A stretch of 63,995 nucleotides of DNA, filler included, from Jimgerdemannia flammicorona (Eukaryota): assembly GCA_003990765.1 (NCBI GenBank). It is 3 parts of 3 records of this genome, joined end to end, with 100 filler letters (N's around TTAATTAATTAA, not from the genome) between each part and the next. Parts side by side here need not be neighbours in the genome. Positions count along the whole stretch, not along the records: positions 43,065 to 63,995 come from RBNJ01001564.1; 2 more parts are not named here. One strand, written 5' to 3'. A model generated the notes under the pieces. That model was not told the DNA's origin. It was given only the letters and a program-made list of their open reading frames with translations, and ran no database searches. The position numbers were made by a program, and so were the translations under genes. Positions 21,141 through 63,970 of this stretch are shown piece after piece (the stretch's first letter is position 1; the number at the start of each line of letters is the position of its first letter).

Positions 21141-21149
21141 CAAGCATCT

Positions 21150-21435
21150 TTCTCCAGTAATATTCAGGTTACACAACTCTTTGGCAACACTTTCGACACA
21201 GTTTCTGGAGAAAAGCTACTAGTATCATGGCAACTAACGAGCATCCGGAGGTGCGTACTGGGCAGGGTGGCCCTGGAGCATTTGAATGGCAGCAAGTGGG
21301 GAGAGGCCCTGGCTTGGGGGGAAGTATGAGGGGCCTGCTGGCGGGGGGCCATAGTGGAAGAGGGAGCAGAGCTGGAGGTCAAGGGTCTGGCAGGGTGAGC
21401 TTTGCGGAGAAGGTGAAGGGGGGTCGGCAGGGAGC
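21150..21435 (+). mobile_element. 5' end (UTR and start of ORF1) of an L1/Tx1-like LINE, cut by an assembly gap
   Basis: UTR 'attcaggttacacaa..caacactttcgacac' and ORF MATNEHPE..GAFEWQQVGRG..SFAEKVKG match the 5' end of the LINE at 25443-25605. Confidence 0.85.
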
Positions 21436-21535
21436 NNNNNNNNNNNNNNNNNNNNNNNNNNNNNNNNNNNNNNNNNNNNTTAATTAATTAANNNNNNNNN
21501 NNNNNNNNNNNNNNNNNNNNNNNNNNNNNNNNNNN
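21436..21535. other. Assembly gap with artificial six-frame stop linker
   Basis: N-run containing TTAATTAATTAA; the same structure occurs at 42965-43063. Confidence 0.97.
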
Positions 21536-33220: not shown

Positions 33221-34466
33221 AAGGATAATCCAAGGACAGATCATCCTTTAGTAGGGGCTGATGTGATGAGTAGCAGAATTATACAGCTGAAATCATAAAT
33301 TAGCTATACACTATATCTAGTGCTCTAAGTAACCAAGACTGCCTTATGCATAATTAGTCAGAGATATCAGAAACAGTATATTTATCTATACCAGTCCAGT
33401 ATACTATACTAAGTCAGTTAACTGTACCAGTCCAGTACACTGTACTATTTAGATATTCTTATATTGATAGTAATCTATAATTAGCTACATAGTAACTATT
33501 AGCAACCATAACTGTATAAAATACTCCAGAGACAAGAGTGAATAAACCTCAGTCTGAAATTCAGAATACATTTTAACTCCAGTCCCCTTTCTAATATGAC
33601 GCTTTGGTTTGCTTATCAGATAAGCCTGAAGAATTTGAGTAAATCTGCCACTCAAGGAAGAGCTGCTATTTTCAAAAAAAAAGGTCCACCACCTTGTCAC
33701 AAAGCCAGTCTGTTGATACAACTTGTAGTGAGCTTGTTTATGCAAATGAAGCCAGTCTTGATGTAACTTTGCCAAGAAGAAGAGAATCTGAGTTATTATT
33801 CAAGGAGTCTGCTGATTTAGAAGAATCTACATCATTTACCATTTTCGAGTTATCTGCAATTCCCAGAGAGCCCACCTTAAGGAAACTTGCCACAAGCTAG
33901 TCTATCTGATACAACTTCACAGTAGAGCCAGTTCCTCTCTGATGTAACTCTATGCAAACGAAGCCAGTCTTTGATGTAACTTACCAGGAATCCACAATCC
34001 AAGCTATCTGAATTATCTGTGCCATCCAGGTTATTTCTTAGAAGAATCTGCCAATTCAGAAGAATCCATGTCAAACCGAGTTATTCAAGTTATCAAGTTA
34101 TCTGACATTTCCAGAGAAGCCTGCCAATTCAGGAGAATCCACACCAAACCAAGTCATTCAAATTATCTGCCAAATCTGCATAAGGAATACTGCCAAGTTC
34201 ATCATGCCAAGGTCATCATACAGAAATCACATACTCTTGGAGATTGTCACCTAAGAAGAAAACTGCCTAAGGAATTGTCTATATTCAAGAACCATCTCAA
34301 TAAGAAAATCGACTGTTATATCCAGATTGACTATTATACCACTAAATACCAACAAGGAATCTGAGAAAATTTTGTTGCTTTTAACAAAGTAACTGAGAGC
34401 TCATGCCAAACTACACCAACTCCCAACCTTGTAAATTGCCTCTATTGAGCCAGGCACATTATATTA

Positions 34467-37400: not shown

Positions 37401-40400
37401 CTACCATGAATAGCTCAGAGAAGAAATCAAGCAGATAGAAGAAGTTGGTATCATCAAAGAAGCCAGTAGCCCTTGTGTTTCACCAGTTGTATTAGCTCTG
37501 AAGAAAGGAAGCAAACCAGGAGAATTTGTCCTAAGGCTCTGCACTGATTATAGGAATCTCAACCTGATTACTAAGAAGGACCACCAATTACTACCTCTCA
37601 TTAGCAATATTCTTGTAATCTTAAGAGATGAAGCATAGTACTATAGTATCTTAGACTTATATTCAGGATTCTATCAAATTGGTCTCACAGAAGCAGCAAG
37701 TAAGAAGTCAGCCTTCATCACCCCAGACAGAACCTATGTCTACCTTTAAATACCATAATATATTAGCAAGATTTTAGTGAATAATGAATAAAATCTTCTG
37801 CTACTATATGGAAAGATGAATGATAGTTATATGGATGATGTGATTATCTAGAGCAAGATAGCTGAAGAATATCTGCAGTATATCCAGCAGATAATGGAGA
37901 AGCTAAGGAAATATGGTCTTTACATCAAGCCCAAGAAGTGTAAGTTTGCAGAAATTGAGATCTTCTATCTTAGCCATATCATTAACTGAAATGGAACACA
38001 CACAGACCCTCTCAAGATTCAAACCATAGTAGTGTACCCAAGGCCCACAATTATCACTGATGCCCAAGCCTTTATGGAACTCACCTCATACTACTACAGA
38101 TTTATCAAAGGATTCTCTAACATTGCAATCTCAATCTATGAAATCAACAAGAAGAATAGTAAGTTCTAGTAGACAGGCAGACAACAAAAAGCATTCAATA
38201 AACTCAAGATTAGACTGACCAAAGCACCCATCCTCAGAAGACCTGATTGGACTCAAGAATTTATTCTGCAGACAGATACAAGTGCATAAGGACAAGGAGC
38301 TATCCTGGCCTAGAAGAAAGATAAAGTAAAGTATATTATAGCCAAGAAATCCAAGAGGCAGCAAAGAAATTTGAATCCTATAAGTTGGATTATCTCACAG
38401 TCATCTGGGCTATATAAAAGTTCTACTACTATCTTGCTGGAAGACACTTCACTATTCAGACAGATTATTCAGCCCTCACCTAGCTACTGACCATTGGACA
38501 ACCCAAAGGAATCTATGTCAGATAGATTATGAAGTTGTAGGCCTATGATGTAGCCATTGTATACTATTTTAGAAGAACCAATGTCAATATAGATGCACTC
38601 TTACAAATACTCTGAAGGACACTCAACCAACAAATAAATAGTGAATAAGAAGCTTTACTATAGAATTATCACCTATCTGAGATAGCAAAAGATACCCCAA
38701 CAACTAAAAGATGGACATAAATAATTATCAATAGAACATTGAAACAATTTAATACTGATAGAGAAATATTAAAGAAAGGAAAGCTACTAGTCATATCAGA
38801 ATGCAAGAAGGAGCAAGCAATGAAATCAGTACATAAACTTGGCCATCTAGAAGGAATGAATACTTATGAAAAAGCAAGAAGAACAATATATTTATCAGAA
38901 ATAGAAGATATTAGACAATTTGTCAAGATCTGTGATAAATACCAGAAATAGAAACAAGACCAACAAAATCAGACCCCAGGATCAGCACACATAGAACTAA
39001 TACTCTTTACACATATTGCAATAGATATAATTGGCCCTCTACTCTTGACTTTAACTTATAACTAATACATATTCATTATTGTAGACCTTTTTATAAAATA
39101 GATAGAGGTAGAATATCTCAAAGAAGCCAATATACAGTTATTTACTGATTTCTTCTACAAAGAAATTATATGCCAATTCAAGACCTCATTGCAAGTAACT
39201 ACAGACAGAGGAATAGAATTCATGAACCATTTTTTTAAAGTTCTCTACAAGAAGTACAAGATCCAGCATATTCAGACTACAGCATATTACTCTCAGAGAA
39301 ATGGACAAGCAGAAAGAACTAATAATACTCTTAAGAATATTATCACCAAGATCTGCAATAACTACAAAAATTAGGATAACTATCTGCCAATAGTATTATC
39401 CACTCTTTAGGATATCTGATCACAAAGTACCCATTTTATTTCTAGAGAAATACTGTTTAGAGAAGAAAGTTCCAAAGAAACTATATCATTCAATAGAGAT
39501 GCTATATAGAAACATGTAGATATAGAGATATGGAGACTATACTAAATCAGAAAGAAGGCTAAAGATTATATAACCAAGGTACAGGTTATAATAGAATAAT
39601 ATAGAAAAGATTCACAAACTTCTGGAGATTATCAAGATAGGAGACAAAGTTCTAGTATATTGATATATAGTAGAAGCTTCATGGTTACAAAAACTAGAGC
39701 CTAAGTGGGGAGGACCTTACCTGATACAAGATATGAAAGGAACCACATTTTGGCTATGAAAACTCTCTCATATAATCATCCTCCATACCATCTACTAAAA
39801 CTGATACAAGAAGTATCATGGCTAACAAACTAAGTACTGCTGCAGTCCTCAAGATAACCAGTGCTGCCCAAAGTACTATAGAAAGACAATGGTATACTAC
39901 TGAGCCACCCTCTATGGAATAGTATCCAGAGCATAGTCCCAATATACTTATTGTGAATTTCACATTTCAAGATCTACCAGAACTGGACCAAGTTTCAAGA
40001 ATACTTCAGTTAGGACAGCTACTGAATGTGCAGCTAGAGATAGGAAAAGAAGACTAGATTAGCAAGTGTCAGCTCTCTTATACTTAGATTACAATCACTA
40101 AATAAGTTAATAAGTTATTCGAAGATAATAAGCCAGCTATAGCTCATTTCTGAGAAGTAGTCCCAGGAGACTTTGGATATATTAAGAGTTATTATTGAGA
40201 GAGTATAATGATACAAATCATATAGTACAAGGAGATAAAACTTATGTAAGCTTAGGAGTTCTAGTAAATAGGATATTACAGAGACAAATCACCTATTCAG
40301 GAGGAAGTTGTGACAGTTAATCCAAATTAGAAACATGAATCAGAGGAATAGATATTTGATCATAGTATCTGAATCCAATTCCCTAATATAGTATAGCCTT

Positions 40401-40790
40401 GCAAATAGTAGTCATTTTATAAATTTTAAAGTTTTAATAAATGTTAAAGTATTTACAAATGTCTATATTAAAGTTTTGACAATTATCAAGATTTAACAGA
40501 TATCAAGATTTAACACTTGTGAAAAGTGACTCATAGGAAATATAGTCATAACTTAGCTATCTTATAGCTAGCAAACTTGTATAAATATCTCCAATATCTA
40601 AAGTAAATAAACCTCAGATCAAAATAGTTCAAAGTAAAGATAAAGTAAGAGAACTAGTAAGTCTTTAGGTAGATATACTTTGAACTCACCCACCCCTATA
40701 TTCCAAGAACTCTGCAGAGTCAAGGAAGATCAAGTTTTCATAATACAGAAATCTGACATACTTATATAGTTATACATCTACTATGTTACA
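34467..40790 (+). mobile_element. Ty3/gypsy LTR retrotransposon family B (gag-PR-RT-RH-IN-ORF3), decayed
   Basis: 5' LTR remnant 34467-34656 matches 3' LTR 40309-40790. PBS-like tagtgcccattgac at 34660; PR IIDTGA about 36155; RT YMDDVII about 37830; IN TDRGIEF and KWGGPY; PPT ttcaggaggaagt. Confidence 0.92.
39818..40260 (+). pseudogene. Accessory ORF3 of family B (between IN and PPT)
   Basis: MANKLSTAAV...SRILQLGQLLNV...ITITK*VNKLFEDNKPAIAHF*EVVPGDFGYI, with several stops. Confidence 0.65.
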
Positions 40791-42960
40791 ATATAAAGTC
40801 CAACTTCTTTAATATTTGTTATAGCCAAATAGCTTCTTTTATTGTTGTGGGCAATGCTTGATATTTAGCTTATATAGATGATATTACTACTGAGCTCTGC
40901 TTAAAATATAACTCCTTTATTTAATTAAAAGAAATATCAAGTTATAAATCAATAATTATTAAAATCTCTAGCCCAATTAGTATCACAAGTACCAGATAGC
41001 TAGATACTATAACTCTTACTATTACTCTCACTTAATTCCATATTCCTACTCAATATAAATATATAGTATACCAATCTCTTTAAGTATCAAAAAATCCTCT
41101 TGATTGCTGACCAGTTTGAGTTATTATAGTATGAATAATACTGTACTACTTTATTGATAGTTTAGAATATATTAGACCATATTTAAAGTATGAGATATAT
41201 TAGGGAACTGATGGATTATTAATAGGGGATATTGGTAGTAATATATTTAATAGATATATTATTATCATCCTCAGATATAGTATTGTTATTCTCTGGCCTC
41301 CTTAACTTTATAAAAGTCTATATTAGGGTGTTAATAGACTTGGAATTACTTATATTAAGTATTCTAGAATTGTTTAAAAATAAATTTACTGTGATAGATA
41401 TATAGTATATATGTTTTTATCATATATAATATATAGATATTCTTAAAAGAAAAAATATTTTGTCCATGTTTATCATTTTCAATTTTTAGTATAAAGTTTC
41501 TTTAACTCTATTAAATCTATTCTTTATTATAATAATGATATACATATCAACCCAAATATCTATAAAAGCAACTCTATTAGTATATTATTATATATATATA
41601 TATATAATTATCTATTTTATATTATTATAATCTATTATTAAGGAGATATTTATTGTTTTTTCAGTTCTATAGATTGACTGCTTGCTTAATATCATCTAAC
41701 TCTTTATGTAGTATCTTTTTATAGTTTATATACTAACTTGTTATTCTAGTCTAATATTCACAATAAATTGAATTAAATTAAATTTGACTGAAATTCAATT
41801 TGATTCAATTAAATCAAAGACTAATTCAATTCAAAATATAATAACTTAACAAATATATATCCAAATTGAATAGTTTTTAACTTATTAGATTCTACTATAT
41901 AGAGTAAATATAACAAGCAAAAAATTATTAAATTTGGATATGATTTTGTCAAGTTATTGTATTCCTAAAAATATTATTCAAATTGGACCCTTGTTTTGAT
42001 TTGATTGATTTAGAAATACTATTCTGACCATTATATAGCTCATATTCTTATAGCTAGTAAATGTATAACTCTATATATATCTATATATATTATTGTTAAA
42101 AAAGGCTATCTTATATTTATCTGATAAATTTCCAGATTATATAGCATCCAAATTATAAGAAGTATTCTCAGAAAAGTAAGTTTGAATGGTGGAGAAAATG
42201 TCTTATTATTGTTAAAACTAAAATCTTATAAATAATCCTTAGTAATGAAATGTACTTTAAATAATTCTACAATTTGATAACTTTTGTAATTAGTCTTATA
42301 GACTAAATGAGATCCAATAGTCTGTCAATTAGCCAGAAGTAGTATTAGATCCCACATTCTATTCTTGATAAGTAAATTATACTCTTCATCTATAGCACAT
42401 TTCTATTTCTTATTGTTAGGAGAGATTATTACTTTATTATATATACTTATCACATTGGAAGTTGGGATAAATATATATTTATATACTTCAGCATAACTCA
42501 TGTGATCTGTCTGAGGCTTACTGGTATATTCTAATAACTTTCTAATTCAGAATATATCTCATTTCTGAGCTTATGCTTTGGCTTTTACTTACTCTTATAT
42601 ACTCTTAATAGATCTCTTATCACTGGAGGCTTTATTATTATCTTTATTATTGATTTCTATTATCCTTGGCTCAGATAACACTAATAGCTGTGAATAATTT
42701 TCAACCAACTGTATTTGAAATATTTTTCTTTACTGCTAAAAGTTAGAGATAGAAATAATAATTACACTGGCTACTATATTTATACTAACTGAGATAAAGA
42801 GGTTTTGATAGATATATCTATATAAATCTCCTGATTGTTGTCTTTCTTAAATATAATATTATATAAGATTACTATTGATACTTATATAGATTTCACAGTC
42901 TATATAATTTATTATTATATATAAAAAATATGTATCTATCTATCTTAGACCCAAACTTAT
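40791..42960 (-). mobile_element. Ty1/copia RT-RNase H relic, with a small AT-rich insertion at about 41755-41990
   Basis: AIDEEYNLLIKNRMWDL (RT start), WSAIKRIF*YLK, AKYQAL...KEAIWL (copia RNase H). Confidence 0.8.
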
Positions 42961-42964
42961 ATCT

Positions 42965-43063
42965 NNNNNNNNNNNNNNNNNNNNNNNNNNNNNNNNNNNN
43001 NNNNNNNNTTAATTAATTAANNNNNNNNNNNNNNNNNNNNNNNNNNNNNNNNNNNNNNNNNNN
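42965..43063. other. Assembly gap with stop linker
   Basis: N-run containing TTAATTAATTAA. Confidence 0.97.
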
Positions 43064-43572
43064 NTTTTTTTCATAGTCACTTGGACTTCTCCATTTATTA
43101 CTAGTCTATTAATAAGATTACAGTATTATCTCTCACTACTCAATCTCCATAGGGGAGCTCCTCTCTACATTATCATGAATAAAGACTACTTTCTCACCCA
43201 CTACTCCAACCCTCTCCCTACTCTGCCTACAGACTTTCTCTACTAAGTGATATCTCTGACCACCCTACAAATCCCAACCAAGTCACCAGTCTGTCAAAGT
43301 ATCTTCCATAAGCCTTTGCCAATATAACAGCTAGACCTCTAAGCCCAATCTTCTTCTATCCTCAAAAACAAATAACCAGTAACTGGTCAGCTTCACTCAA
43401 ATCACCAAAACCCAACCTAAGATAAGCCACTCCTTCCCCACTCCCCCCACTAGTCTATTTCTCAAATCCTCTCATTGACTCTATATACTATCCCCTCTAC
43501 ACACTACCCATAAATAATTCCCAACAGCCTGCTAAAAGTTACTAAGTATTTTACACTCTCCTAGTCAATATT
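43064..43572 (-). mobile_element. 3' end of an L1/Tx1-like LINE with poly(A)
   Basis: Aligns with 58179-58650. The T-run plus 'atagtc' matches the LINE tail at 63971-63995. Confidence 0.75.
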
Positions 43573-43639
43573 CTAGTATTAGTGCTCTGCAAACCTGACC
43601 CAATTAACCTGAAACCTGACCTGTAAAACAGCCAACCTG

Positions 43640-43860
43640 GAATTAGATGTCACCTATCTTTAATCTAACCCAGAATTATACATCATCCATCTTTAATCTG
43701 ACCTAGAATTATATATCACCCATCTTTAACTTGACTCAGAATTGTATGTCACCCATCTTTAATCTGATCTGAAAAGATATATTACCCATCTTTAATCCAA
43801 CTTGGAATTAAATATAATCCATCTTTAGCCTGACCTAGAAATATATGTCACCTGACCTGT
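43640..43860 (+). repeat. 33-bp tandem array (left subterminal repeats of the hAT element)
   Basis: Unit about cacc(c/t)atctttaa(c/t)ctgacc(c/t)agaattatat(a/g)t; inverted relative to 57900-58145. Confidence 0.85.
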
Positions 43861-45076
43861 TATTTACCCTTAACCCAAATCTAAACCTGACCCCTGAACC
43901 CAACTCTGAACCTGACCTCTAAACCCAACCCTGAACCCAATCCTCTGAACTCTGCTCTGAAAAAATGATTTGGAAAATATTTAGATAATATTCAGAGTAA
44001 TTGAAAGTGAAAAATATCTGAAGACTACCAAGAATCTAAACACATATATGCATGAATTATATTTACACATAAGCTATTTCGACATTCAGTCACTAGCTCA
44101 CCAGCAATAGAAAAAATACATTCAGATGGAACAGATGTTGCTGAAATAGTAAGATAATTGTAAGCCATTTATGAAAGATTAGGATATACTGACTGATTTC
44201 ATCACCATCAATCTAGTATATCTATAGGAGGATTAGATAGATTCTCTAACAAATAACTGAAATAGAGAAAGATGAGTGAAAATTAACCAAGTTAACCAAA
44301 AAACATAAAAACAACACCCATTATTCAAGCTCATCATCCACATCAATATGCTGTTTCTTCTCATATATTGAGTTGATAAAATCATTGACATCATGAGATA
44401 TTGAGGGTATAATGACAGCATTAATAGGCTTATACTCCTTTTACCAGATATATTCCATCTGATTCTTTCATTCATCAATTAAGGATTTTTTTCATTGCTT
44501 ATGACAGAAATAATGCATATTGATATGTAGATCTAAGGCTGAAGCTATGCTATATAATGGTGTTGTCTTGTAGTAATACTTTAGAAGTTTCATATGCTGT
44601 CATGTAGTGGTTGCTGAGTTCTTCAAATATGCTAGATTCTCTTCAAGGTGTATCTCTTAGACTAACTCAAGTTTGTTATAAGCAAGTTCTTATTGGAGTA
44701 CCTTCCCAAGGTCTTATAGTCCTCAAACTTCTTATCTTTAAACTGTCTTATTATCTCTTAGATTGCTTGCAAGGAAGTGTGTGTATTGCACTGAGAAAAC
44801 TGACTTTATTTCAGAGAAAATAAGAGGGGTATTTATACAAAATATAATTCAATGGTTGCTAAGATATAAAGCTAAATATAAATTTTAATAACTAAAACTA
44901 CTAAGTTCCAGGGTCAGCACTGATGGTTGTATAGGTTCAGAATGCTGGTATAATTCAGTATCACATTAGAATACTGGTGCTAGAACAATTTTGCATTACC
45001 TCAGAATGCCAGTACTGGCATTATCCAGTGTTACATCAAAATACTGGTGCTGGCATTATTTAGTATAACAAGGAAC

Positions 45077-45874
45077 TTAGAGCAGAATGTTCAGGATCAT
45101 GGGGGCTTCATCATCATCATCATCATCACTGAAGGAGATGAGATCTGCAAATTCATCATTTTCACATGCTTTGATATCGCATGGGATGACATCATCACTG
45201 ATGATGTCATCACATTCGGTGGTAGGGAAATCGGGGGCTCTCCAATCTATGAGGTTCTCTTCCACAAAATAAGGGACAAATGTGGGATCTTGGGGAGATC
45301 TAACCTGGATACTTGGGCCTTGGAATACTGAGATCAATTCTTGCAGAAATTGGTCTGAGTTGTTCTGAAGGATGGGGTGCTAGAAGTTTTCTACTTCTTC
45401 ACTGTTGAGGGTGATAGTGGACTGGGCTTCTGTAGCTACTCTGGCTTCTAGTGCATTGATGCAGTGGGATGACAGGTCTCTGAAATCTGAGACTCTAACA
45501 TACTCTAAGTTGGGGATCAACTATGGTGTATGCCTGAAGATCTAATGGATCTTCTTAGCTGTTCTTGTTTCATGTATATCCATGGGAGTGGCATCTTGTA
45601 GCTCTTGAGTACTGGCCTGTGGGAACTCCTGGCAGAGGAGGTTTCCTATTTCATACTTCTGCCACATTTGGAGGCATTCGGTAGCAATGATGATCCTTGT
45701 TTCTATTTCACAGTGGTAGAGGATAAAGTGATAGGGATCTGCAGTACCAAGGTTGATACTAGGAGTCCTTCTTGAGTGAGTCCTCATGGCTCTTCTGATG
45801 TCTTGGAACATCCTTTCCTCAACTGAGATGCCTTGGTAGTTCCTTGACCTTGAGGTTTGGTGAGTAGCAGGCAT
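45077..45874 (-). pseudogene. LTR-encoded accessory ORF3 of family C (3' LTR copy, 265 codons, several stops)
   Basis: Same length and frame as 52359-53156. Its stops fall at different positions from those in the other LTR. Confidence 0.8.
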
Positions 45875-48800
45875 TTCATTTGTGGTAAGTCTTTGAGCTA
45901 TTTTGGGATTAGTGGTTCTTGTTGGTTGCTGCTACTGCAGTTCCTTGATCTTTCTTTTATATTCTTCAGGATGCTTGAACTGTGGTCACAATGACTCACA
46001 GTTGGTCATCATTACTCATCTCATATGCCATATGATCTTCTTGTGCTCTGATCTGGTGGCTTGCAAGGAAAGGCTGTCTCCTGTACTGATGTCATCATTC
46101 TGGGGTTACTGTTATATCTTCCTCCTGAATAAGGATCTTCCTGAGCATCCTTATTCATTGGTCCAGTTCTGAAAAATTTGCTGATCCCATAACCTCTGGC
46201 AAGGGGTTGAAAAGTGGTATTAATGGGCTGGCATCTTCCCTTTGTATTTTGACATAATGGTGAAGGGTCACTCCCTTCATATAGAGCAAGGGCCTGATTC
46301 TGATCTTGATCAATCAGTTGATGGTTTGAACTTCTCTGACTTTGAAAGTCTTATGGATGAGTAGTTGCTAGTGCCATATCCCTTAGAGAATGGTTCAGAC
46401 AGATAGCCTGCTGGTCATGAGACATGCTGTTATGATTCATGGACTAGAACCTCATGGGTGGTCATCACATTTTGCTTCTCTTGTATAGATTTATGGTACT
46501 TCTTGAGTCTGTTCCTATATACTATAGTAGGCAGTATAGTCCCTGAGATTTTTCTAAGCCAGAAGGTAGTTCTCTTAATATCTTGCACATAGACGGGTCC
46601 TTCCCATTTGGGCTCTAGTTTTTGTGACCATAAGGCTTCTACCATATTTTGATATAGTAGAACCTTTTCTCTGATTTGGATGGGTTCTAGGGCCATGTGA
46701 TTCTTTTCTGCATTCTTCCTTGTCAGCACTTGTGACTTGGTGATGTAATCTTCAGCCTTCTTCCTGATTTGGTGTAGTCTCTGGATTTCTGCATCAACCT
46801 GTCTCCAGTTAGGTCTAGATTTGTGGCTGAGGTTCCATCAGAATCTTCTTCTCTGAAGAGCAACTCCCTTGGGGTAAAGTGTGTACTCTGTGACTGTATA
46901 TCTCATAGAACAGAGAGGGCAGTTGGGAGATAATTATCCCAATTCTCATATGTCTCTGAGATCTTCACTAGGATGTTCTTGAGGGTCTTGTTGGTTCTCT
47001 CTGTCTATCCATTTCCTTGAGGGTGGTATGCAGTAGTCTTGATGTGCTGGATCTTGTATTTCTGATACATTATCTCATGGAATCCATTGACAAATTCTGT
47101 TCTATGGTCTGTTGTGATTTACTTTGGTGTCTTATAGTAGCAGATGATTTCTCAGTACAGGAAGTCAGCTATAGAGAGGACATTAGCTTCTTGTAATATT
47201 CCTGTCTCTATCTATTTGGTGAAGAGGTCTATAATAACTATAATATAATGGTTTCCTGATAGTGTTACTGATAGCAGTCCAATGATATCCATTGCAATGT
47301 GGTGGAAGGGGATAGGCTCAATTCTTGATGATCCAGGTATCTGGTCTTGCTGATCTTATTTCTGTTTTTGGCACTTGTCATACTCTTTGACAAATTGGTA
47401 CAGGTCTTCTTCCATCTTGGGCCACCACATGGTTCTTCTTGCCTTGTCATATGTATTGGTTCTTCCTAGGTGTCCTTGCTCATATACTTCCTTCATTACT
47501 TGATACTTCTTGTGTTTGGGTATTTCTAGCTTTCTTCCTTTTCTGAGTGTAGTGTTGTCTAGTTTAAACTGTTTCCAAGTCCAGTTGATAATAGTGATTG
47601 TCCAGGGTTCGAGGTGGTTGGACATCTTCCGCTGCCCAAGATAGCTGATTAATCCATAGTATAGCTCCTTATTCATGTTGAATAGTCTTGATGGAGGTGT
47701 TTCGGGGTATCCTTGAGAGTGCATCGGCATTGGTATTGGTCTTTTCTAAGTGGTGCTTAATAGTACAGTCATACTCTTGCAGCCTGTAGATCTATCTGGC
47801 ATATATTCCTTTGGGGTTCAGAGTGTGGAATAGTCAGGCAAGAGTGGAATGGTCTGTTTGAATGGTGAAGTGTTTTCTGACTAAGTAGTAGTGGAACTTG
47901 TCTACTGCTCAAACTACTGCTAAGCATTCAAGCTTGCATGACTTGTAGTTCTGTTCTGCTCTGTGGGTACCTTGGCTTACATAAGAGATGATATATTCAT
48001 GTCCATCTTTCTTCTGAGCTAGAACTGCTCTAAGTCCTATAGTACTTGCATCTGTCTGCAGGATGAATTCTAGGTTCCAGTCTGGTCTTCTGATGATAGG
48101 TGTTTGAGTTAATCTGATCTTGAGTTTATTGAAGATTTCTTAGTGCTCCTTGGTCTATTTGAATTTGGTCTCCTTATTCAGTAGCTCATAGATAGGTGCT
48201 GCAATGTTGGAGTATCCTTTGATGAACCTTCTGTAGTAGCTGGCCAGTCCAAGGAAGGCATGGACTTCTGTGGTTGTTCTGGGTCTTGGATAGGCTGCAA
48301 CAGCCTCAATCTTTATGGGGTCTATGTGGATTCCAGTCTGGTTGATGAGATGTTCTAGATAAGCGATTTCCTGGGCTGCAAACTTATATTTCTTGGGCTT
48401 GATGTAGAGGCCATGCTCCTTGAGCTTCTTGAGGACTAGCTGTATGTGATTGACATGTTCCTGTACAGTGTTGCTGAAGATGATCACATCATCAATATAG
48501 ATAAAGAGCCATTTTCCAATCTCATTGCTGAAGACTCTGTTCATCATTTACTGAAAACTTGCTAGGGCATTACACATTCCAAATGGTATTTGCAAATAGA
48601 TATAGGTGATGTCAGGTGTGATGAAGGCTGATTTCTTACTGGCATCTTGAGTGAGACCAATCTGATGGAAGCCTGAGAACAGATCCAAGGTGGTGTAGTA
48701 TTTGGCTTTGCTTCCAAGAGTGGTAAGGATTTCTTGAATATTCGGCAAGGGCTGCCTATCCTTCTTAGTAATGGTATTAAGCTTTCTGTAGTCAATGCAG

Positions 48801-51800
48801 AGTCTTGGTGCAAACTCTCCAAGCTTGCTTTCTTTCTTTGGGGCAAGAACAATGAGTGAGGCCCAGGGGCTGATAGCTTGCTTGATGATTCTGACTTCTT
48901 CTATTTCCTTGAGTTCTGCTCACAGCCATTCTCTGTAGGCAGGTGGTATGGGTCTGGCTTTCTGGTAGATGGGCTTGGTATCACTGGTGTCAACTTTGTG
49001 ATAGTACTTAGGTTCTTGATTGTGGATATCCCTGAAGTCTGTAGCAAGTACTCCTTCATTCTGATACAGGATCTTGAGAAGTTGTTCCTCCAGGGAAAAG
49101 TTTTCTCTAATAGTATATGTGTACTTGTTCTGGTCCTTGTCTTTCTTGTATTTAAGTTCAGTTATCTTAGTGATGGTATAGGCTCCTCTTTCAGTAGATC
49201 CAAAGCCTTGTTCTCCTCTCTTGATCTTGATGAGTTCAATGACTTCAATGATCTTGGGTTTCTTGATTTCATGGATCAGCTGGCCAATCCTGTCATGCTT
49301 CTTAACTTCAAATGGGGTGGTGTGGTTGTGATTTCTGACTATGAGGAAGATCTCGCCAGTATAATCAAGGTCAATTACTCCTCCTTCAACTGAGATTTCG
49401 CTTTTGGCCAGACTGCTCTTAGTCTTGATGATTCTGGTATAGTTCTCTGGTAACTTGACTCCAATTCCTGTGCCAAGTAGAGTGGTGGTCTATGGTTCAA
49501 GGGTAGCATCTTGAATGCTGGCAAGGTCCATTTCTATGGCTCCTTCAGTCTTATATTCTGGGATCTTGGCTTCAGGGTGAAACTTCTTGACCTTGAGGGT
49601 GATATCTGATTCTTGTTCCTCCTCATTGTCACTGTCAGCTTGAAGTTCTGGGGGCTGGTCATCTTCTTCAGCTTTCCTTTTTGCTTCGGCAGCTTCTTAC
49701 TCATGTTTCTATTGGTGGATTTTCCTGACTTCACTGATATAGGACCAGCAGTCATTCAGGTATTTAGAGCAGTACATCCTAGTACTATGGAGGCATCTTC
49801 CTTGAGGGGCATACCTATCGATAATCTTATTGTACCACTGCTCATCTGTGAGCTTGGGTGTCTTGTTCTTGTTCTTGTTCACCGAGTGTATGAAGACTTC
49901 TGTGTCTTTTTCATCTCCTTCCTCTATATCTGGTAGAACTTCTTTTTTTTTTTTTTTTTTTTTTGGTAGAACTCCTTTGTGGACATTGATAGAGACTTGT
50001 ACCTTTGTTCCTCTATAGTTGATCTGCATCTTCTGGGCATTGAGATCAATGATGGCCTTGGCCTTGTGAAGCTATTGGTTACCAATGAGGATGTCATAAT
50101 TGGTGGCACTTGTAACAATCATGTCTATTGGGATGGTAGCTCCTCCTATCTTGATGGGGACTTCTTGGATTTTGCTAAGGAGGATAGCTCGTATACCATC
50201 TGCTGTGACATAGACCATCTTGGTGGACTCTTCAATATCCCAGCCTAGGTGGTCAATTGCCTTCTTGCTCATGAGGCATCCTCCAGCACCAGTATCAATG
50301 ATGGCATCAAAGATACAGTCTTTGATCTGACAGGGGGTATAGGCTGATATCTTGTGCTGGTCTTCAGATTCTTCACCTGAGTTCTCAGATTCTTTCTGTA
50401 CATTGTGAGCTTCTACAATCTTATACTCTTGATTCTTGGTGGTAGTTGCAAGTCCTACTCTCAACTGCTGTCTGAAGGCAGTAACTTCAGTTAGTTGTCC
50501 AAAAGTAGTATTGATCTTCTGTTTCTTGAGGTCCTTGTAGATGTCATACTGATGGATCTTGGTCTTATGCAGCTTCTGTTTCTTCTTGCTTTCACTTTCT
50601 CCTGAGACTGGAGTAGTGCCTTCAATGATTTGGTGGGTAGCTTCATCTAACTCCATGTCTTGATCAATCTCCTCAGGTTGGATATTGCTTTGAATAGTGA
50701 CAGCTAGGGTCTTCTTTGGTCTTCCAACTGACTTGCTGTTGCTCTTCTTGTCATAGGACTTGGACTGGGTTCTGGTACCTTCAGTAGCAGGGTAGAATTC
50801 AAGCTCCTCATAGTATTCTTTATCATCAGTATCACCAATCTCCTTGATGACAACTGTATTGATTTGTTCTCTAGTTCTGCTAGCATTGCTTGGTTGGGCT
50901 TTGCATCTTGTTTCAGTCATGCAACTCTTTGCATAGTGGTCTTCTTCTCCACATCTGAAGTATATAATATTGTATTCTTCTGTAGCAGCTGCAAATCTCT
51001 ACACTGGTCTCCTGTTGGCACTTCAGACTTCTCTAACAACATCACCAAGGTGTGCAGTCATCTCAGTAAACTGCTTGGTGAGTTCTTCCACTGGGTCAGC
51101 TTTGGCTGTCTTGGGGGTAGATGGGGTTGGTTGTCTGTTTACAACTGTGGCAGGTATAATACTAGTTGGCTTTGATGGCTCTATCTTGATGCCAGTTATT
51201 TTCTCTATTGAGTGTTCAGCAGGGTGTCTGGCAGTCCAATATCTCTGTGCAAAGACCACTTTCTGATCAAGAGTCAGTGCAGCTGAGGTAGATCGGATTG
51301 CTAGGGCAATTTCAGGATGAACTCCTTTGAGGAAGATTGAATCTGCTATTTGTTTCTTGAGGTGGTCATCATAGCCAGCCAAGACAATCTAATGGCAGAT
51401 TTGGGTATAGAATGAGTTGGGATCTTCACTAAGTCTCTGGCAGATAGTATTGAGTTGATCCTTGAGAGCTTGCTTGATCTCTTCAGTATAATATGTTGTT
51501 CTGAGGAAGACCTTCATGTTGGCAAGTTTGGCTGCACCAGTATTAGCAATGGTAGCTGTATTGAACTTGTCTCTGGCAGGTCCTCTGAGACTGACTGATA
51601 GAAGGGCTAATTGAGCATCCACACCAAGGGCTCATATGGTGGCGAAATGTTCAAAGTCTTCAATGAAGGTCAGGATTGACTCTTCAGTAGTATATTCATA
51701 GAATGTGGGGGGATGCATTTCCATCTTGTCTTGAATTCTTGCAGGGGTGACTCTTGTAGTCAGGGTAGTTGTTGTGGGGATTGTTTGTTTTTCAGCTTGA

Positions 51801-52358
51801 AAGTGAGGGATTCATCTTGAATCACTAGTCAATAGGCACCAAGTTGTCATGTAGTGGTTGCTGAGTCCTTCAAATATACCAGATTCTCTTCAAGGTGTAT
51901 CTCTTAGACTAACTCAAGTTTGTTATAAGCAAGTTCTTATTGGAGTGCCTTCTCAAGGTCTTATAGTCCTCAAACTTCTTATCTTTAAACTGTCTTGTTA
52001 TCTCTTAGATTGCTTACAAGGAAGTGTATATATTGCACTGAGAAGACTGACTTTATTTCAGAGGAAATAAGAGGGGTATTTATACAAAATATAATTCAAT
52101 AGTTGCTAAGATATAAAGCTAAATATAAATTCCAATAACTAAAACTACTAAGTTTCAGAGTCAGCACTAATAGTTGTACAGGTTCAGAATGCTGTTATAA
52201 TTTAGTGTCACATCAGAATACCAGTGCTAGAATAATTTTGCATCACCTCAGAATGCCAATGCTGGCATTATCCTGTATTACATCAAAATACTAGTACTGG
52301 CATTATCCAGTATTATATCAAAATACCGGTGCTGGCATTATTCAGTGTAACAAGGAAC

Positions 52359-53156
52359 TTAGAGCAAAATGTTCAGGATCATGGGGGCTTCATCATCATC
52401 ATCATCATCACTGAAGGAGATGAGATCCATGAATTCATCGTTTTCATGTACTTCGATGTCATGCAGGATGACATCATTGCTAATGATGTCATCACATTTG
52501 GCAGTGGGGAAATCAGGGGCTCTCCAATCTATGAGGTTCTCTTCCACAAAATAAGGAACAAATGTGGGGTCTTGGAGAGATCTAACCTGGATGCTTAGAC
52601 CTTGGAATACTGAGATCAATCCTTGCAGGAATTGGTCTGGGTTGTCCTGAAGGATGGGGTGCCAGAAGTCTTCTACTTCTTCACTATTGAGGGTGATAGT
52701 GGACTGGGCTTCTGTAGCTACCCTGGCTTCTAGTACATTGATGCGGTGGGATGACAGGTCTCTGAAATCTGAGACTCTAACATACTCCAAGTTGGGAATT
52801 GACCATGGTACATGTCTGAAGATCTGATGGATTTTCTTAGCTGTCCTTGTTTCATGTATATCCATGAGAGTGGTATCTTGTAGCTCTTGAGTACTGGTCT
52901 GTGGGAACTCCCGGCAGAGGAGGTTTCCTATTTCGTACTTCTGCTACATTTGGAGGCATTCAGTAGCAATGGTGATCCTTGTTTCCATTTCACAGTAGTA
53001 GAGGATAAAGTGATAAGGATCTGTGGTACCCAAGTTGACACTAGGAGTTCTTCTTGAGTAGGTCCTCATGGCTCTTCTGATGTCTTGGAACATCCTTTTC
53101 TCAACTGAGATGCCTTGGTAGTTCCTTGATCTTGAGGTTTGGTGGGCAGCAGGCAT
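52359..53156 (-). pseudogene. LTR-encoded accessory ORF3 of family C (5' LTR copy, single TGG>TAG stop)
   Basis: The ORF-track pieces 52944-53156 and 52359-52865 are one frame. The TAG at 52944 is TGG in the other LTR. Confidence 0.82.
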
Positions 53157-55484
53157 TTCATTTGTGGTAAGTCTTTGAGCTATTTTGGGATTAGTGGTTC
53201 TTATTGATTACTGCTACTGCAGTTCCTTGATCCTTCTTTTATATTCTTCAGAATGCTTATACTGTGGTCACAATGACTCACAGTTGGTCATCATTGCTCA
53301 TCTTGTATGCTGTATGATCTTCTTGTGCTCTGATCTGGTGGCTTGCAAGAAAAGGCTGTCTCCTGTACTGATGTCATCATTCTGGAGTCACCATTATAAT
53401 ACATTCTCAGTAGCAGTAAGCATTATCTATAAAAAATAAAAATATATACATATTACTTCCCAATTACTTACTAAATTAGTTCCTAAATTCACAAATAAAA
53501 TTACTTTCAAAATCATATATATACCTGATTAAAATATTCACCAGTTTGATATATATTGATGATATCTTTGAGGTGATCACATAACCGATTAAATAGTGAG
53601 ATAACAGCTGCTATTGTAAGATACTTCGAAGTTGACATCACAGTTGTCACTTTGGTAAAAGGCTCAAGAAATTGGCAAATCAATTCAAATTGTTGTTATG
53701 CATCTTCAGATATATTACTCATTTGCTTATCTATGATACACAATATATCCAAACCCTATTTAGATGTAATATCAATTTATTTAGTACCAAAATACTTCTG
53801 AATCATATTCCAAAATCTATACAAATAGATTTAAAATCTTATCTTATGAATCTCTAGAGTATATGCTAACATTTCATATATAGAACTCCATCTCATCATA
53901 ATATCTAAGAGAGGCTTCAAAATAGGAATTCTGGAGGATTCACAGACCTTTGCTAGTTGTACTTATCATTGTGCTAAATTTTTGATCTTCTTTATTAACT
54001 CCTATAGCTTTTCAATGGGCTCGCTAAGAGAACCAAGAGCATTATAAACAACGAGATTCAATATATACCTGAAACAGCATACATGAGCAAGTGGATGATG
54101 GAGATTCTCAAACAGAGTATTATTGTTACTAATATTATTATACACAATAGCAATGATTTAATTATCACTAGGTAATAAATCATCTATTACCAGCTTCAGA
54201 CTTTTTGCAAAATTGGCACCCATGTGTGTTATTTTGCTAATATTCACAAAGTCTAAGATAATGTTATATATCTTCCAATCACTGTCAATCTAATGAGCTG
54301 TTATTCCAAGGAAGGCCTTGATGTTAACATCCAATGTCCACTAATCAAGTATAAGTGACACCTTCAACTTGAGCCCTGTTAGCCTTGCTTTTACTTGAGT
54401 CTGCAATAGTTTGAATTCCTTTTGAATAACTCATGAAATTATATCAGCTGATAGAAGGGCCAGATTAGGGCATAATATGTGAAGAAGATACTTGAAGCCA
54501 GTGTTTTTGATAGTGGAGAATAGCTGATATCCAGTGATAATAAAGTTGGTAATTAACCAATAGAAATTTTCATCACTTAAAGTCTTGCTAGTGTGTTCTT
54601 ATTTATAATCTAATAACCTCCTAAGTACTTCCTGAATTCCATTCTATCCATACTCACAATATCATCTTTCTTAGACCAGTGAGGATTCTCAGCATACTGA
54701 AGAGGTAAGAGCATGGCATTGTGATGCTTTCAGAGATGTTGTTTAAGATTGTTGATATTGCCATCCTTCAATATATAGCTCTAAGTTATGCAATAGTTAC
54801 AACTGATGAGCTTACTTTGTAAATTCTATTTGAATAGAGAGATATGAGACTATATTAGAACCTCAACCACTTACAACTGACCACCCACCCTTACAACTGA
54901 TGAGACCAATTATCCCTGTAAATGCAACTATTAGTACAATATATAAAACTACCTTTGTGATATGATTCCACACTCAGCTATTACCAGGTTTTGTTTTTAT
55001 TTTTTTCTTGTACTTATTGATGATAACAAACTAGTGGAGACATCTGATATATCCTTCAATATATCCTCTGATATATCATCCGATGGTTATGAGATTTCTC
55101 CTAAATACACTTCTTGATCTTTAGACATTTCAAATATTTAATGATAGTGGGGACTAGGAGCTTGAGTGGGAGGCCAAGAGCTGGAAAGTAGCTAGGAAGT
55201 GGTGAGCTAGAGAGTGGTGAACTGGGAAACAAGCTGGGGGGGCAGTGAACTAGAGGGCAGGGAGTTGAGAGGAGGTGGTGAGCAGCAGGAAAAGCCAGGA
55301 ACTGTGGGGCCTGAAACAGGAGTCAGCAAGCTGGGGGGCAGCAAGAGAGAGAGCAGTAAGGTGGTGTGCAATAGCCAATAATTGATTGTGGACAGAGGAT
55401 GGATGAATAAATATGCATGGGTGGTGAACTGGTACCCATCATGCAACTGCAAACAGCAAACATACTTTGGATATTCAGCATATT

Positions 55485-57628: not shown

Positions 57629-57899
57629 GATCTATTCACACCAGTAAGTTCTTTATTTTTCTGATTTACTTCCTATTTATTTCTGATTTCATTTTCATTT
57701 CTGATTCCTAATTATATTTCTGTTTATTTATTCTAAATATATATCTTAGATGTGCAATATTTTTTTTTTAGTGTCTTGTAGCTTAAAGGCAGATTAAAGA
57801 TGGGTCTGTGTCAGATTAAATATAGGTCAGGGTTGAGTCATATATATTTCTCAGGTCAGGTCATGTATATTTCTCAGGTTGGGTTACATATATTTCTTG

Positions 57900-58145
57900 G
57901 GTTGGGTTAAAGATGGGTTATGTATAATTCTGGGTCAGATTAAAGATAGGTGATATATATTTCCAGGTTGGGTTAAAGATGAGTGATATATAATTTTGGG
58001 TTAGGTTAAAGATAGGTGACATATTATTCTGAGTTGGATTAAAGATAGGTGACATATAATTCTGGGTCAGGTTAAAGATAGGTGATATATAATTCCAGGT
58101 CAGGTTAAAGATAGGTGATATATAATTCTGGGTCAGGTTAAATAT
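57900..58145 (-). repeat. 33-bp tandem array (right subterminal repeats of the hAT element)
   Basis: Unit about ggtcaggttaaagataggtgatatataattctg. Confidence 0.88.
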
Positions 58146-59764
58146 GTACATGGGTTGGCTCAGGTTACAATATACTAGCCATTTATTATCAGTCTATTAA
58201 TAAGTTTACAGTATTACCTCCCACTACCCAATCTCTATAGGAGAGCCTCTCTCCACATTATTATGAATAAAGACCACACTACTCCAACTCTCCTCCCACT
58301 CTGCTTACAGATTTTCTCCACCAAGCAATACCTTCAACTATCCTACAACCCCCAACCAAGCCACCAGTTTGTCAAGATGTCTTCCATAAGACTATACCAA
58401 TGCAACAGTCTGTCCCTCAAGCCCAGTCTCCTTCCATCCTCAAAAACAAATAATCAGTAACTGGCCAACTCCACCCAAATCACCAAAACTCAGTCTAAGA
58501 TAAGCCACTCCTTCCCCACCCCCCCCACCAGTCTATCCCTCAAATCCTCCCACCAACTCTGTACACCATCTCCCCTACACACTACCCCTGAATGATCCCC
58601 AACAGTCTACCAAAAGTCACTAAGTACCTTATACTCTCCTAGCCAATGTTCAGACATCTGCACATATCTCCCTTCCTGCCCTACATTATGGCACTCCTCA
58701 CAGGAAGTAACCTCCCTCGATAAGATGACCTAAGTAGAAGTTGAGCATTATATTTCTCCTCATCAGACCACCTAATATTTTGGTAGTATCTATCTCCTCA
58801 CCTCAGCACTCCAGGTCCAAATACTATGCCAGTTCCACTCCTCTAATACTCACTCCCTGCCATCTGTTAGGCTACAGATCCTGGCCTGATCCCCTTTGGC
58901 ATTCTATCCTATCACTAATGTCAAACTCAATTAAGGGAATGCCTCTCAGTAATACTCAGTTCCATCTTCACATTACTGAGTCTCAAGCTACCTCTCCTTT
59001 ATTTCTCTGCCAAAAAATTACAATATAGTGTACCTCCTCTGCTACCCTACACCAGAAGTCTTTGAATTACAATTTTTCAGTATTCTGAAGTCCAACCAAT
59101 GACAGGAGATCTCCTGTCATGCCTCTTGGTGAGGATCTCATCTCTCAGACCTTCTGTAATAGGGGGACCTAACTGCCCCCTCTCAACTCCACTGCTCTCT
59201 TTAACCACCATGCTCTCAAGCAGTATAGCCTCTTTGGAAAGTCAACCAGCCTAAGTCCTCCTCTTGCCACTGGTAAGGATAAGACCTCCCAACTGATCTA
59301 ACTCCTTCTTCTAGCCCAGATCCACTCCTTGGCCAGCTTTATCAATCTCTTCACTACCCAGGCTGGGAAGTCCAGATGATAAGCCAGATACTACAACTTC
59401 AGCAGCCAATAGACATTCAAAATTGAGACATGCTCTGCTAGAGATAAGTGGCAACCCCCCCAACTCTGCAGGGCCTTTGTAAGAGGGTTGCTTTTTAAGA
59501 GTAACCATTATGTAGTTCTGGAAGGATTTTCTGGAAGTTCTGGATGTTCTGGAAGACTGTTTTCTTATGGTCAAGATCAATTTAATATGGAGTATATCCT
59601 CTATGCTTATTGATTTCAAGATCAGGTTGACATCTCAACCAAAGTTCTTTTTTTGAACTAGTTCTAGATGTTCAGGATTTTCAGTATTTTAGGAAGTTCA
59701 AGAGACTAAGACCAGCTTAGTTGAATTGGTATATTGCTGTAGACAATACCCAATTAGAAAATTT

Positions 59765-61544: not shown

Positions 61545-63970
61545 GCCTTCCCCCAGATTCCAACCCTCTGCTCCCACCAAAGTCTGAGTAGGACTGACCC
61601 ATATATTATAAATAAATATCCAAGTACTGCACTATCTCACCAGTAGGGATGATTGTTCTAATAATATCCCCACCCACCAGACTATTGCCTAATACCATTG
61701 TTTCACACTTGTACCAATTGAGTTTAGCCCCAGAGTTTTCCTCATACTACTTCACTATCTCCTTGAGCTCCTCAATATCAGCAATTGATCTCAGACCAAT
61801 CACTATATCATCTGCAAAGGCTCTAACTTTCCACCCAATTCCAAAAATGGAGAGCTCCACTATCTTCTGCCTAATTCTGTCCATTAGGGGTTCTAGAGAA
61901 AGAGTATATAGAATGGGGGATAGTAGGTCCCCCTGGGGCATACTGATACCCAGGGGAAATGATATCCCTCTATATCTATTACATATGAGTGCAGTCCTAT
62001 TCCCTTCCAGTAGGCTAATCATTACTGACCAGAACTAGTACAGTATCCCAGTTCTATCTAAGACTTTCACCAGTCAAACTCACTACACCTAGTCATAAGC
62101 CTTCTCCTGGTCTAAGAAGACCAGTCACCCATCCAGTCTACAAGCTTGTACTCCTTCAATAACTCCATATACCCAGGCTGTATCATCCCTAATGAGTTGG
62201 CCTCCTACAAAGCCCCTCTGCTCAATACCCAAGACTTGCTGGGCCACCTTCTGTAGCCTCACAACTACTACCTTAGTCACTGACTTTCTATCCATGTCTA
62301 GAGCATAATCAGCCTCCAGTTCTTCCAGTTCTCTCACCTTCCTTTGTTCTTATAAAGCAATGTCACCAGCCCCAGATCCTGCTCCCCCACCCATTTCCCT
62401 GTCTGTAGTATAAAATCACACAATATCATCATCTCATTCAGTACTCCTGAGACTCCCACTATCTTCTTCTAGAAGTCCCAGGGCAGATCATCCTCCCCAG
62501 GTGCTGTACCTGGTGTCATCATGGCAAGAATCTAGAGGATCTCTTCCTCTTGTACTGACAATATCAAGTTACCCAGCCCATCCACTTGTGGAGGGTGCCA
62601 ATCCTCCAATGCCCAGTCAATAGCAGTAGTATCAGCCCCACCCTCCTTCTCACTCCATAATCCACTCTATTGCTTCTTTAATAATTCAAGAATGTCTTGT
62701 ATACTATGCACTAGTATACTATCAGAGTCAAGTATCTCCTCCCATCTTTGCTATATCCTTCTCACCTGAAGGACCCTTGTAAGATACTTTGAGGGCCTCT
62801 CTCCTTCCTCCAAACCCTGCCAATGAAGCCATACTACCAAGCTCTGCACCCTTATCTCTTCCTCTTCCCATAATACCTGTTTTAATTCTCCAATCTCTAT
62901 TTTTGCTCTCATTAATCTCCAATCCTCTCTCTTCTCTAATATCACTAGCCCTGTCTAATCTTCCAAGAGTCTAGCCAGTCTAACAGAAGCCCATCTCACT
63001 TGTCACCTCCTCTGCTTCTCAGTCTCCTTGTCAGCCTCACTCCAGTAGACCCTGGCCATCTCTTTCATTCTCATCTACCAAACACCAACTGGGGTACCTT
63101 TTTGTCTCTAGCTCTCTACCCTCAGTTGAATGTCTTCAGCCCACTCATTCCACCAGATCCTATCATCTCATAAAGAGAAATTGAGGCACTAATGTCCAGG
63201 CCTATACCCACTCCCTCCAAAGTGCCCCTGTCCTAACAGCCCTTAATGATCTGACTATAGACACCATTTTACCTCCAGCAACTTCCAAACATCCAAGCCC
63301 CAGAAGCTAGCCATCAAAATCCAGTCAATCCTCATCTCCAGGCCCCCTGCCCAATGTATATATACTCTCTTATCTCCCTAATACTCCCTACCAGTATCTA
63401 TCGGAGCACTTAGTCTTTCTACTACCTCTCACACCACCAGCCCTCCACTCCTACTCTCAGCTCCCTGTCCTCTATCTGTTCTATCCATCAGTACATTCTG
63501 GACCATATTAATGTCTCCACCAAGCATATATACCCCAGCCTCTATAAGAACCCCACTCTCCTGGAGACTCTTCACTTAATCCACATACTCACTCTATACA
63601 GCAGAGTAGTAACAGAAGTCCACTGTGACTGACTTCCAACCTGTATGTATCTACTCTCCCCAGACCAATCTATCCCTCCAGCTCCTCATATCCCATATCT
63701 CCCCTCTGCCTTTCCAGACCAGAATCCCAATCTTGCTCTTCCAAACTATCTCATCTCCTCATTCTTTCATCCATTCCAGCCTATCTAAATCATTCTCACA
63801 CCTGATATCCTGCAAGAGGAAGATATTTGCCTCCAATCTCTTCAGCTAAATAAAAATGTTCCTACATCAAGAAGTACCCCATAACCTATTCACATTTAAA
63901 GAAAAAATGTTAGTTATATTATTCATAATGAAATATAGTGTGTTATCAAGTCTATCTCTACTGTTTCATA

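Follow-up and report, generated by a model that had tools for sequence, protein, structure and literature searches.

In a window of 63,995 nucleotides (nt), the whole stretch of Jimgerdemannia flammicorona DNA analysed here (assembly GCA_003990765.1), we characterized a Ty3/gypsy retrotransposon, element A, at 44598-53398. The element harbours an accessory gene borne by its long terminal repeats (LTRs), in a position resembling that of the LTR gene of mouse mammary tumour virus (MMTV), and this gene encodes an orphan protein family in a fungal host. On the reading that we favour, with a probability of roughly three in four, element A is an old, CpG-decayed copy of a family whose LTRs are each ~1.5 kb long and hold a 265-codon open reading frame (ORF) in the U3 region (the LTR part upstream of the transcription start), with its own promoter and encoding an accessory factor. 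The window joins parts of 3 records, with filler N runs at 21436-21535 and 42965-43064. Positions count along the joined stretch, and element A lies entirely within the RBNJ01001564.1 part (43,065-63,995).

Element A carries a 265-codon ORF in each LTR

The boundaries, coding domains and ORFs of the element are as follows.

44598-53398, minus strand: element A, Ty3/gypsy retrotransposon with the order protease, dUTPase, reverse transcriptase, integrase (direct repeats and Pfam domains)
51845-53398, minus strand: 5' LTR, 1554 bp, TA...CA in this copy (direct repeat)
44598-46116, minus strand: 3' LTR, 1519 bp, TA...CA, with one 35-bp tandem unit fewer than the 5' LTR (direct repeat)
46117-46129, minus strand: polypurine tract (PPT) TTCAGGAGGAAGA, directly abutting the 3' LTR; the same tract occurs in the related contig L001 and, nearly identical, in sister family B (both below)
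51825-51841, minus strand: sequence TGGTGCCTATTGACTAG resembling a primer-binding site (PBS; TGG-type, TGGTGCC...), 3 nt (ACT) beyond the 5' LTR end ...CATGACA
46130-51844, minus strand: internal region, decayed gag-pol with many stops (Pfam matches)
50072-50998, minus strand: aspartic protease (Pfam)
48920-49489, minus strand: dUTPase, between protease and reverse transcriptase (Pfam, E 1.5e-17)
48155-48919, minus strand: reverse transcriptase, RVT_1 (Pfam)
47356-47745, minus strand: integrase zinc finger (Pfam)
52359-53156, minus strand: LTR ORF, 5' LTR copy, 265 codons plus TAA stop; in-frame TAG at 52946-52944 (codon 71, W in relatives)
45077-45874, minus strand: LTR ORF, 3' LTR copy; in-frame TAGs at 45544-45542, 45523-45521 and 45382-45380 (codons 111, 118 and 165)

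The direct repeat had been described in an earlier reading of the window made from the sequence only. When the two flanked regions were compared by BLASTN we recovered it with exactly the same ends, as two segments that pair 44598-45066 with 51845-52313 (92.5%, 469 nt) and 44992-46116 with 52274-53398 (91.1%, 1127 nt), both at E = 0. These segments are shifted against each other by an additional tandem unit of 35 bp, which accounts for the LTR lengths of 1519 and 1554 bp. As had been claimed, the PPT and the sequence preceding the PBS delimit the repeat exactly, and the upstream LTR copy has as its first base the one next to the PPT in the downstream copy. Since the protease, dUTPase, reverse transcriptase and integrase matches fall on minus-strand ORFs, the element was assigned to the minus strand. 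RNase H gave no separate Pfam match among the ORFs scanned. As for the priming tRNA, the single ARAGORN match in the window is unrelated. PBS and leader together are 88% identical to family B at 34654-34720.

Each ORF starts 243 nt inside its LTR and ends within it. All stops in the two copies are TAG and none is common to both, so the frame was open when element A inserted; the complete, formerly open 265-codon ORF per LTR, interrupted at different codons in the two copies, was thereby borne out.

The LTRs differ by 8.1%, and their MAFFT alignment of 1554 columns contained 120 transitions, 3 transversions and 35 gap columns. The observed/expected CpG ratio was 0.07 in element A (44598-53398) versus 1.06 in the genes at 1-10 kb. 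Decay of the copy is of the cytosine-deamination type, a pattern that suggests methylation-driven deamination of transposable elements in this Mucoromycota genome. Because such decay inflates the divergence between LTRs, that divergence would overestimate the age of the insertion.

The sole relative confirmed among 63 pattern matches was a metagenome contig of 2109 bp (L001), collinear with element A and 86% identical to it over 2116 aligned columns. From an intact 462-amino-acid (aa) integrase ORF the contig passes through ~300 nt to the same PPT, followed by an LTR starting TGTAATGG and by ORF codons 1-40. Pfam recognized a zinc finger and the rve core in its integrase ORF and no chromodomain at E <= 0.1, which gives no ground for classing the element as a chromovirus.

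Element A is embedded in a larger repeat structure (43091-43870 and 57865-58651). Around it lies a direct repeat of ~480 bp (43091-43573 versus 58179-58651, 81% identical), and beside these repeats are arrays of 33-bp units (43607-43870 and 57865-58178); the two arrays match in inverted orientation. Within the window the immediate outer flanks of the element are unique, and only these farther 33-bp arrays and the 480-bp repeat recur.

The ORF probably lies in U3, downstream of its own candidate promoter

On the element strand each LTR contains exactly two TATAAA motifs and one AATAAA, arranged around the ORF together with a tandem repeat.

53238-53243, minus strand: upstream TATAAA (P1), 87 nt before the ORF ATG, candidate ORF promoter; its twin in the 3' LTR is at 45956-45961
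52197-52346, minus strand: tandem repeats of 35 bp, after the ORF stop and before the core promoter (TRF)
52052-52084, minus strand: core module downstream of the ORF, TATAAA 52084-52079 (P2) and AATAAA 52057-52052, 27 nt apart, putative junction of U3 with the terminally repeated R region and poly(A) signal

Within the P2 module TTGTATAAATA is identical to family B at 11/11 bases, and the spacing from TATA to AATAAA is 26 nt in B compared with 27 nt in A. The module would provide the genomic RNA with its core promoter and poly(A) signal. We place the ORF in U3 because it is upstream of this TATAAATA-27 nt-AATAAA module, which is the only LTR feature shared with B and contains the only AATAAA. 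The LTR probably consists of a U3 of ~1.34 kb that includes the ORF, followed by an R that is very short and ~0.2 kb of U5. The sequence-only reading had likewise put the ORF upstream of a TATA/AATAAA module and in U3; its position is as described, and the U3 assignment itself we infer from the layout.

The distance from the LTR start to P1 is ~155 nt, AP-1/CRE-like motifs (TGAGTCA and TGACATCA) lie upstream of P1, and the P1 block GAATATAAA(A/G)GAA is conserved in 3/3 aligned copies, L001 included. The number of 35-bp repeats varies among copies, and in other copies joints or skips of 35-142 nt occur there. No convincing splice donor was seen in the leader by eye. In the mechanism that we propose, the LTR-internal P1 would drive transcription of the ORF and the LTR AATAAA would polyadenylate the transcript, such that each LTR, solo LTRs included, would form a self-contained transcription unit of ~1.2 kb.

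The main competitor of this model is that P1 is the promoter of the element as a whole. The ORF would then lie in an R region of ~1.2 kb as the first cistron of the genomic RNA, and the poly(A) signal of the 5' LTR would be read through. P1 has the attributes of such a promoter, namely a canonical TATAAA with AP-1/CRE-like motifs upstream at a distance from the LTR start equal to a usual U3 length, and the start codon 87 nt downstream of it is conserved. Against this, the only LTR feature conserved with B is the TATAAATA-AATAAA module that follows the ORF, and a 1.2-kb R would require bypass of a poly(A) signal situated 1.2 kb from the cap. We know of no retroelement with an R of 1.2 kb, a matter on which no search was made. 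On balance we consider this arrangement unlikely.

The LTR ORF encodes an orphan protein family

Of 237 candidates compared with the window protein (P0001), 5 were relatives at E <= 0.001. When 1.84 billion cluster representatives were searched with a profile, 6 matched at E <= 0.001, and 5 of these were counted as real (P0002 and P0007-P0010); the sixth, a repeat-rich protein at E 6e-4, was judged spurious. Measured against the window protein or P0003, the relatives are 29-86% identical, and those at 29-47% identity keep open frames of 200-342 aa. Conserved are the start MP..R, the blocks WxEYEI, AKKIHQVFRH, WNPILQDNPDQFLQGL, PQDP..PYF and I.WR.P, and a C-terminal motif DLIxF...P..LNF, preceded by an acidic region that varies by in-frame indels. 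Such a pattern, in which indels stay in frame between a conserved start, conserved blocks and a conserved C-terminus, speaks for selection on the reading frame. The predicted frame is thus kept open in diverged relatives, and the predicted product belongs to a real protein family. This family is an orphan: all 6 of the 6 clusters looked up derive from JGI/IMG or ENA metagenome data, and they have no accession and no name beyond 'hypothetical protein'.

Neither a known family nor a structure or fold was matched. Across 9 family members the sole Pfam match was ATG5_HBR (0.088), at chance level and in 2/9. The best ESM Atlas feature for the ORF protein scored 0.83 with template-modelling (TM) scores <= 0.33, which is uninformative, and the best match of the family in a profile search of the PDB (E 0.23) was disregarded. 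Comparison of the family with element A's own gag ORF by hhalign gave a probability of 0.13%. Longer fused forms of the ORF protein were found in 0 of 2424 candidates scored, which is weak evidence, and an IMG/VR scan with the family alignment yielded 49 pattern matches, 0 of them confirmed.

Inspection by eye shows an N-terminus that is basic and rich in Arg and a tail that is acidic-hydrophobic (DLISF...DEDEAPxILNFLL), and the core is predicted to be helical; no hydrophobic stretch resembling a signal peptide or membrane anchor was seen by such inspection, made with no predictor. It would most likely be an intracellular accessory or regulatory factor, for example a transcriptional activator or silencing antagonist, a guess prompted by composition and analogy only, and presumably neither a structural nor a membrane protein.

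We also considered that the ORF might be a functionless passenger in U3, a captured or chance open frame that is not under selection. This would fit the lack of any known domain, fold or named homologue, the broken state of both ORF copies in the window, and a slightly higher divergence after insertion of the ORF region (9.3%) than of the rest of the LTR (6.7-7.0%). However, decay within one dead copy is uninformative about selection in active lineages, and relatives at 29-47% identity retain the frame, the MP start, the blocks and the C-terminal motif with indels in frame. A passenger is therefore distinctly improbable.

The 1.5-kb LTR is the LTR of the whole family

Element A words occur in soil-metagenome runs, the best of which has 0.25 of the words. 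Contigs of four public runs (X1, X2, X4 and X5) were mapped on 46105-53900, and 4/4 runs were mappable. Eleven contigs connect the LTR start (53384-53393) back to the PPT (46108-46168), 3 in X1, 3 in X2, 1 in X4 and 4 in X5. An LTR of 0.5 kb would start near 52350; none of the joints listed connects that place with the PPT. The contig-derived depth of the ORF-bearing bins (52605-53384) exceeded the mean of 22 internal bins by factors of 2.6, 3.5, 3.2 and 2.8 in the 4/4 runs. In the two bins past 53385 it fell to at most 2.8% (X1), 0.7% (X2), 2.3% (X4) and 9.4% (X5) of the ORF-bin mean, and beyond 53398 the depth of the family is below 8%. Depth ratios above 2 over the ORF part fit the existence of solo LTRs. 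The 1.5-kb ORF-bearing LTR is the true LTR of the whole family and not a local rearrangement, and the boundaries proposed from the window alone thus hold in other copies, in L001 as well as in the PPT-to-LTR-start contigs of all four runs.

A tandem or truncated three-LTR locus, with a true LTR of ~0.5 kb (~480 bp in the sequence-only reading, which had named this case as the alternative), the ORF as an internal 3' gene and the upstream ORF derived from a truncated neighbour, would accommodate the 482-bp 3' LTR of sister family B and the lack of a clean target-site duplication (TSD) around element A, but is very improbable, because truncation would need to have hit the upstream copy precisely at the base after the PPT, because L001 contradicts it, because the ORF part is 2.6-3.5 times deeper than the interior in 4/4 runs with the family ending at 53398, and because no joint from the PPT to ~52350 is among those listed.

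Sister family B lacks the ORF and has its PPT at the equivalent place

A second gypsy element in the window, B (34461-40791, plus strand), has a pol 69-74% identical to that of A. Its features relevant here are two.

40296-40309, plus strand: family B PPT ATTCAGGAGGAAG, almost identical to the PPT of A
40310-40791, plus strand: family B 3' LTR, 482 bp

The sequence-only reading had noted the near-identity of the two PPTs, which holds, and had proposed that the PPT/LTR boundary of A moved upstream relative to B, which is not supported. Detectable nucleotide homology between the pol regions ends at A 46545 and B 39767, 416 bp (A) and 529 bp (B) before the PPT; the PPT therefore occupies an equivalent place in both families and has not moved by ~1 kb. 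A tblastn search of the window with P0003 found only the two LTR copies of A and one other match at E 7.7, and B has no homologue of the ORF.

The length of ~480 bp given for the B LTR is correct for the 3' LTR of 482 bp; the B LTR pair, however, shares only its last 198 bp (40594-40791 versus 34461-34657, 86.9%). The figure consequently depends on the 3' LTR alone, and B, as a damaged element, makes a weak standard of comparison. Its 5' U3 has been replaced or lost. The 159 bp upstream of the 5' LTR remnant (34307-34465) recur at 25615-25772 (84%).

Given the equivalent PPT in both families and the absence of the ORF from B, the U3 of family A would have gained an ORF cassette of ~1 kb inside the LTR, a simpler reading than a PPT shift. 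In this model the cassette entered or arose inside the U3 of family A, and movement of the PPT would not be needed. Alignment of the A and B LTRs scored 226.7 versus 223.3 +/- 10.6 for 30 shuffles (maximum 244.3); it shows no usable homology and locates no insertion point for a cassette.

Weighing the U3 gene model

Several observations count against an LTR gene of the kind that we favour. Both window LTRs begin with TA and not TG; L001 has TG right after the same PPT, and TA would fit a G-to-A change in a CpG/TpG-decayed copy. The flanks of the element, ATGC and ATAC on the plus strand, agree at 3/4 bases with no 5-bp match, so that there is no clean TSD. The conservation of P1 is weak, as the three copies compared differ by just 8-23% in the stretch. 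The metagenome depths derive from contigs and are not copy numbers, and a solo LTR was not seen directly in the contig data. Gene callers report open frames only, which biases the sample of 'intact' relatives, and the distant relatives P0008-P0010 need not lie in LTRs. Pfam-A returned 0 families at E <= 1 for P0001, with no membership of the MMTV Sag or HIV Nef families. The AlphaFold2 models are mostly helical and of low confidence (pLDDT 35.7 with 5 sequences and 47.3 with 9 sequences), and Foldseek, run on such a low-confidence model, gave 0 matches at E <= 0.001 against PDB and BFVD.

Comparison with known LTR and accessory genes

The closest positional parallel is MMTV sag, a superantigen ORF in the U3 of an LTR of roughly 1.3 kb. 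In both systems a complete ORF of a few hundred codons occupies U3 of an unusually long LTR and is hence present in both LTRs; the ORF of element A lies between the LTR start (53398) and the TATAAA (52084) and AATAAA (52057), in what would be U3. In contrast to sag, the ORF of A has its own candidate promoter inside the LTR, lacks any sequence relation (0 Pfam families at E <= 1) and shows no anchor-like segment by eye. MMTV is a betaretrovirus, whereas A is a Ty3/gypsy retrotransposon of a fungal host without env.

The nef gene of the human and simian immunodeficiency viruses (HIV/SIV) and the foamy-virus genes tas/bet are 3' accessory genes that overlap U3, and foamy viruses use an internal promoter. 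Element A resembles them in having an accessory gene at the 3' end that shares U3 sequence, and the idea of a separate promoter fits. Unlike the ORF of A, which is wholly inside the LTR, these genes begin upstream of the PPT and merely overlap U3, and there is no homology. The description 'sag/nef-like' in the sequence-only reading therefore stands for position and fails for the protein, given the lack of Pfam matches.

Among fungal gypsy elements a dUTPase between protease and reverse transcriptase is known from PosPlaTy3-5 of Postia placenta and from Phanerochaete and Tuber elements, in the available text of the report (PMC2864245). Element A shares this arrangement with PosPlaTy3-5 as described there (PMC2864245), and differs from such Dikarya elements in its Mucoromycota host. 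A figure legend in the same paper names 'additional ORFs of unknown function' with no position, and its available text describes no LTR-borne ORF (PMC2864245).

In plants, Retrosat2 has LTRs over 3 kb and an ORF0 located outside the LTR, between the 5' LTR and gag, according to the available part of that source (PMC3485330). Element A is like the Retrosat2/RIRE3/RIRE8 elements with ORF0 and the Athila env-like elements in combining long LTRs with a lineage-specific extra ORF, and unlike Retrosat2, as far as that part describes it, in that the extra ORF is inside the LTR (PMC3485330). A review on additional ORFs in plant elements contained none of six 'in/within the LTR' phrases (PMC7264820).

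Cassandra, a terminal-repeat retrotransposon in miniature, carries in each LTR, from the excerpts available, a unit derived from a 5S rRNA gene with its promoter, and its solo LTRs spread this unit. Element A parallels the Cassandra of these excerpts in an LTR that holds a gene-like unit with its own (candidate) promoter. The Cassandra unit is a fragment of an RNA polymerase III-transcribed RNA gene in a non-autonomous plant element, whereas that of A is protein-coding, in a fungal element of autonomous type.

Phrase searches of the literature for an ORF inside an LTR, in a scope outside which most subscription journals fall and with sources accessible in part, returned only MMTV sag and foamy-virus LTR microRNAs. 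Woot of Tribolium, considered because its LTRs might be unusual, is described in one paper only as a gypsy-class element, and this lead was dropped.

Implications of an LTR-borne gene

LTRs outside retroviruses are treated as non-coding regulatory modules and are masked by pipelines that annotate transposable elements. Under the U3 gene model, the accessory-gene 'complexity' seen in MMTV would have a separate origin in a Mucoromycota retrotransposon, and solo LTRs, usually counted as dead remnants, could be multicopy coding genes. A whole protein family has escaped annotation and is known only from metagenome gene calls. The element would also provide a test case for expression of a 3'/LTR gene in a retrotransposon without env-type splicing.

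A more far-reaching version, which we put forward tentatively as the less probable course, is that the LTR is a self-contained mobile gene, composed of a TATA promoter of its own, the 265-codon ORF and the poly(A) signal of the LTR. The ORF might then encode a new element-specific nuclear regulator, with its basic N-terminus and an acidic tail of activation-like character, that controls the LTR promoter in trans or counters silencing by the host. This early-diverging fungus would in that case harbour a 'complex' retrotransposon family whose solo LTRs stay expressed as genes and spread the dosage of the factor.

Other features of the window

A gene pair with a MYND zinc finger and a SET domain lies at 847-2943 (plus strand). 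The ARMT1-like damage-control phosphatase gene at 3676-4674 (plus strand) encodes a protein that, over the aligned parts, matches two Jimgerdemannia flammicorona proteins at 86% and 96% identity and an Endogone protein at 78%. This places the window in an Endogonales fungus (Mucoromycota), in keeping with the soil-metagenome runs that contain element A words. The ARAGORN call 'tRNA-Pyl (cta)' at 17972-18056 (minus strand), in a region of ~20-28% GC, is most likely a false positive. A tandem array of 23-bp units (~15 or more) occupies 20685-21184, near the filler N run at 21436-21535. A stop-free frame of 707 aa at 23404-25527 (minus strand; GC skew near -0.5, 53-58% GC, no Pfam match) may be low-complexity or repeat-driven rather than a gene. 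Finally, the blocks 21536-22813 and 62092-63368, 73% identical in direct orientation and ~40.5 kb apart along the joined stretch, represent a dispersed repeat family.

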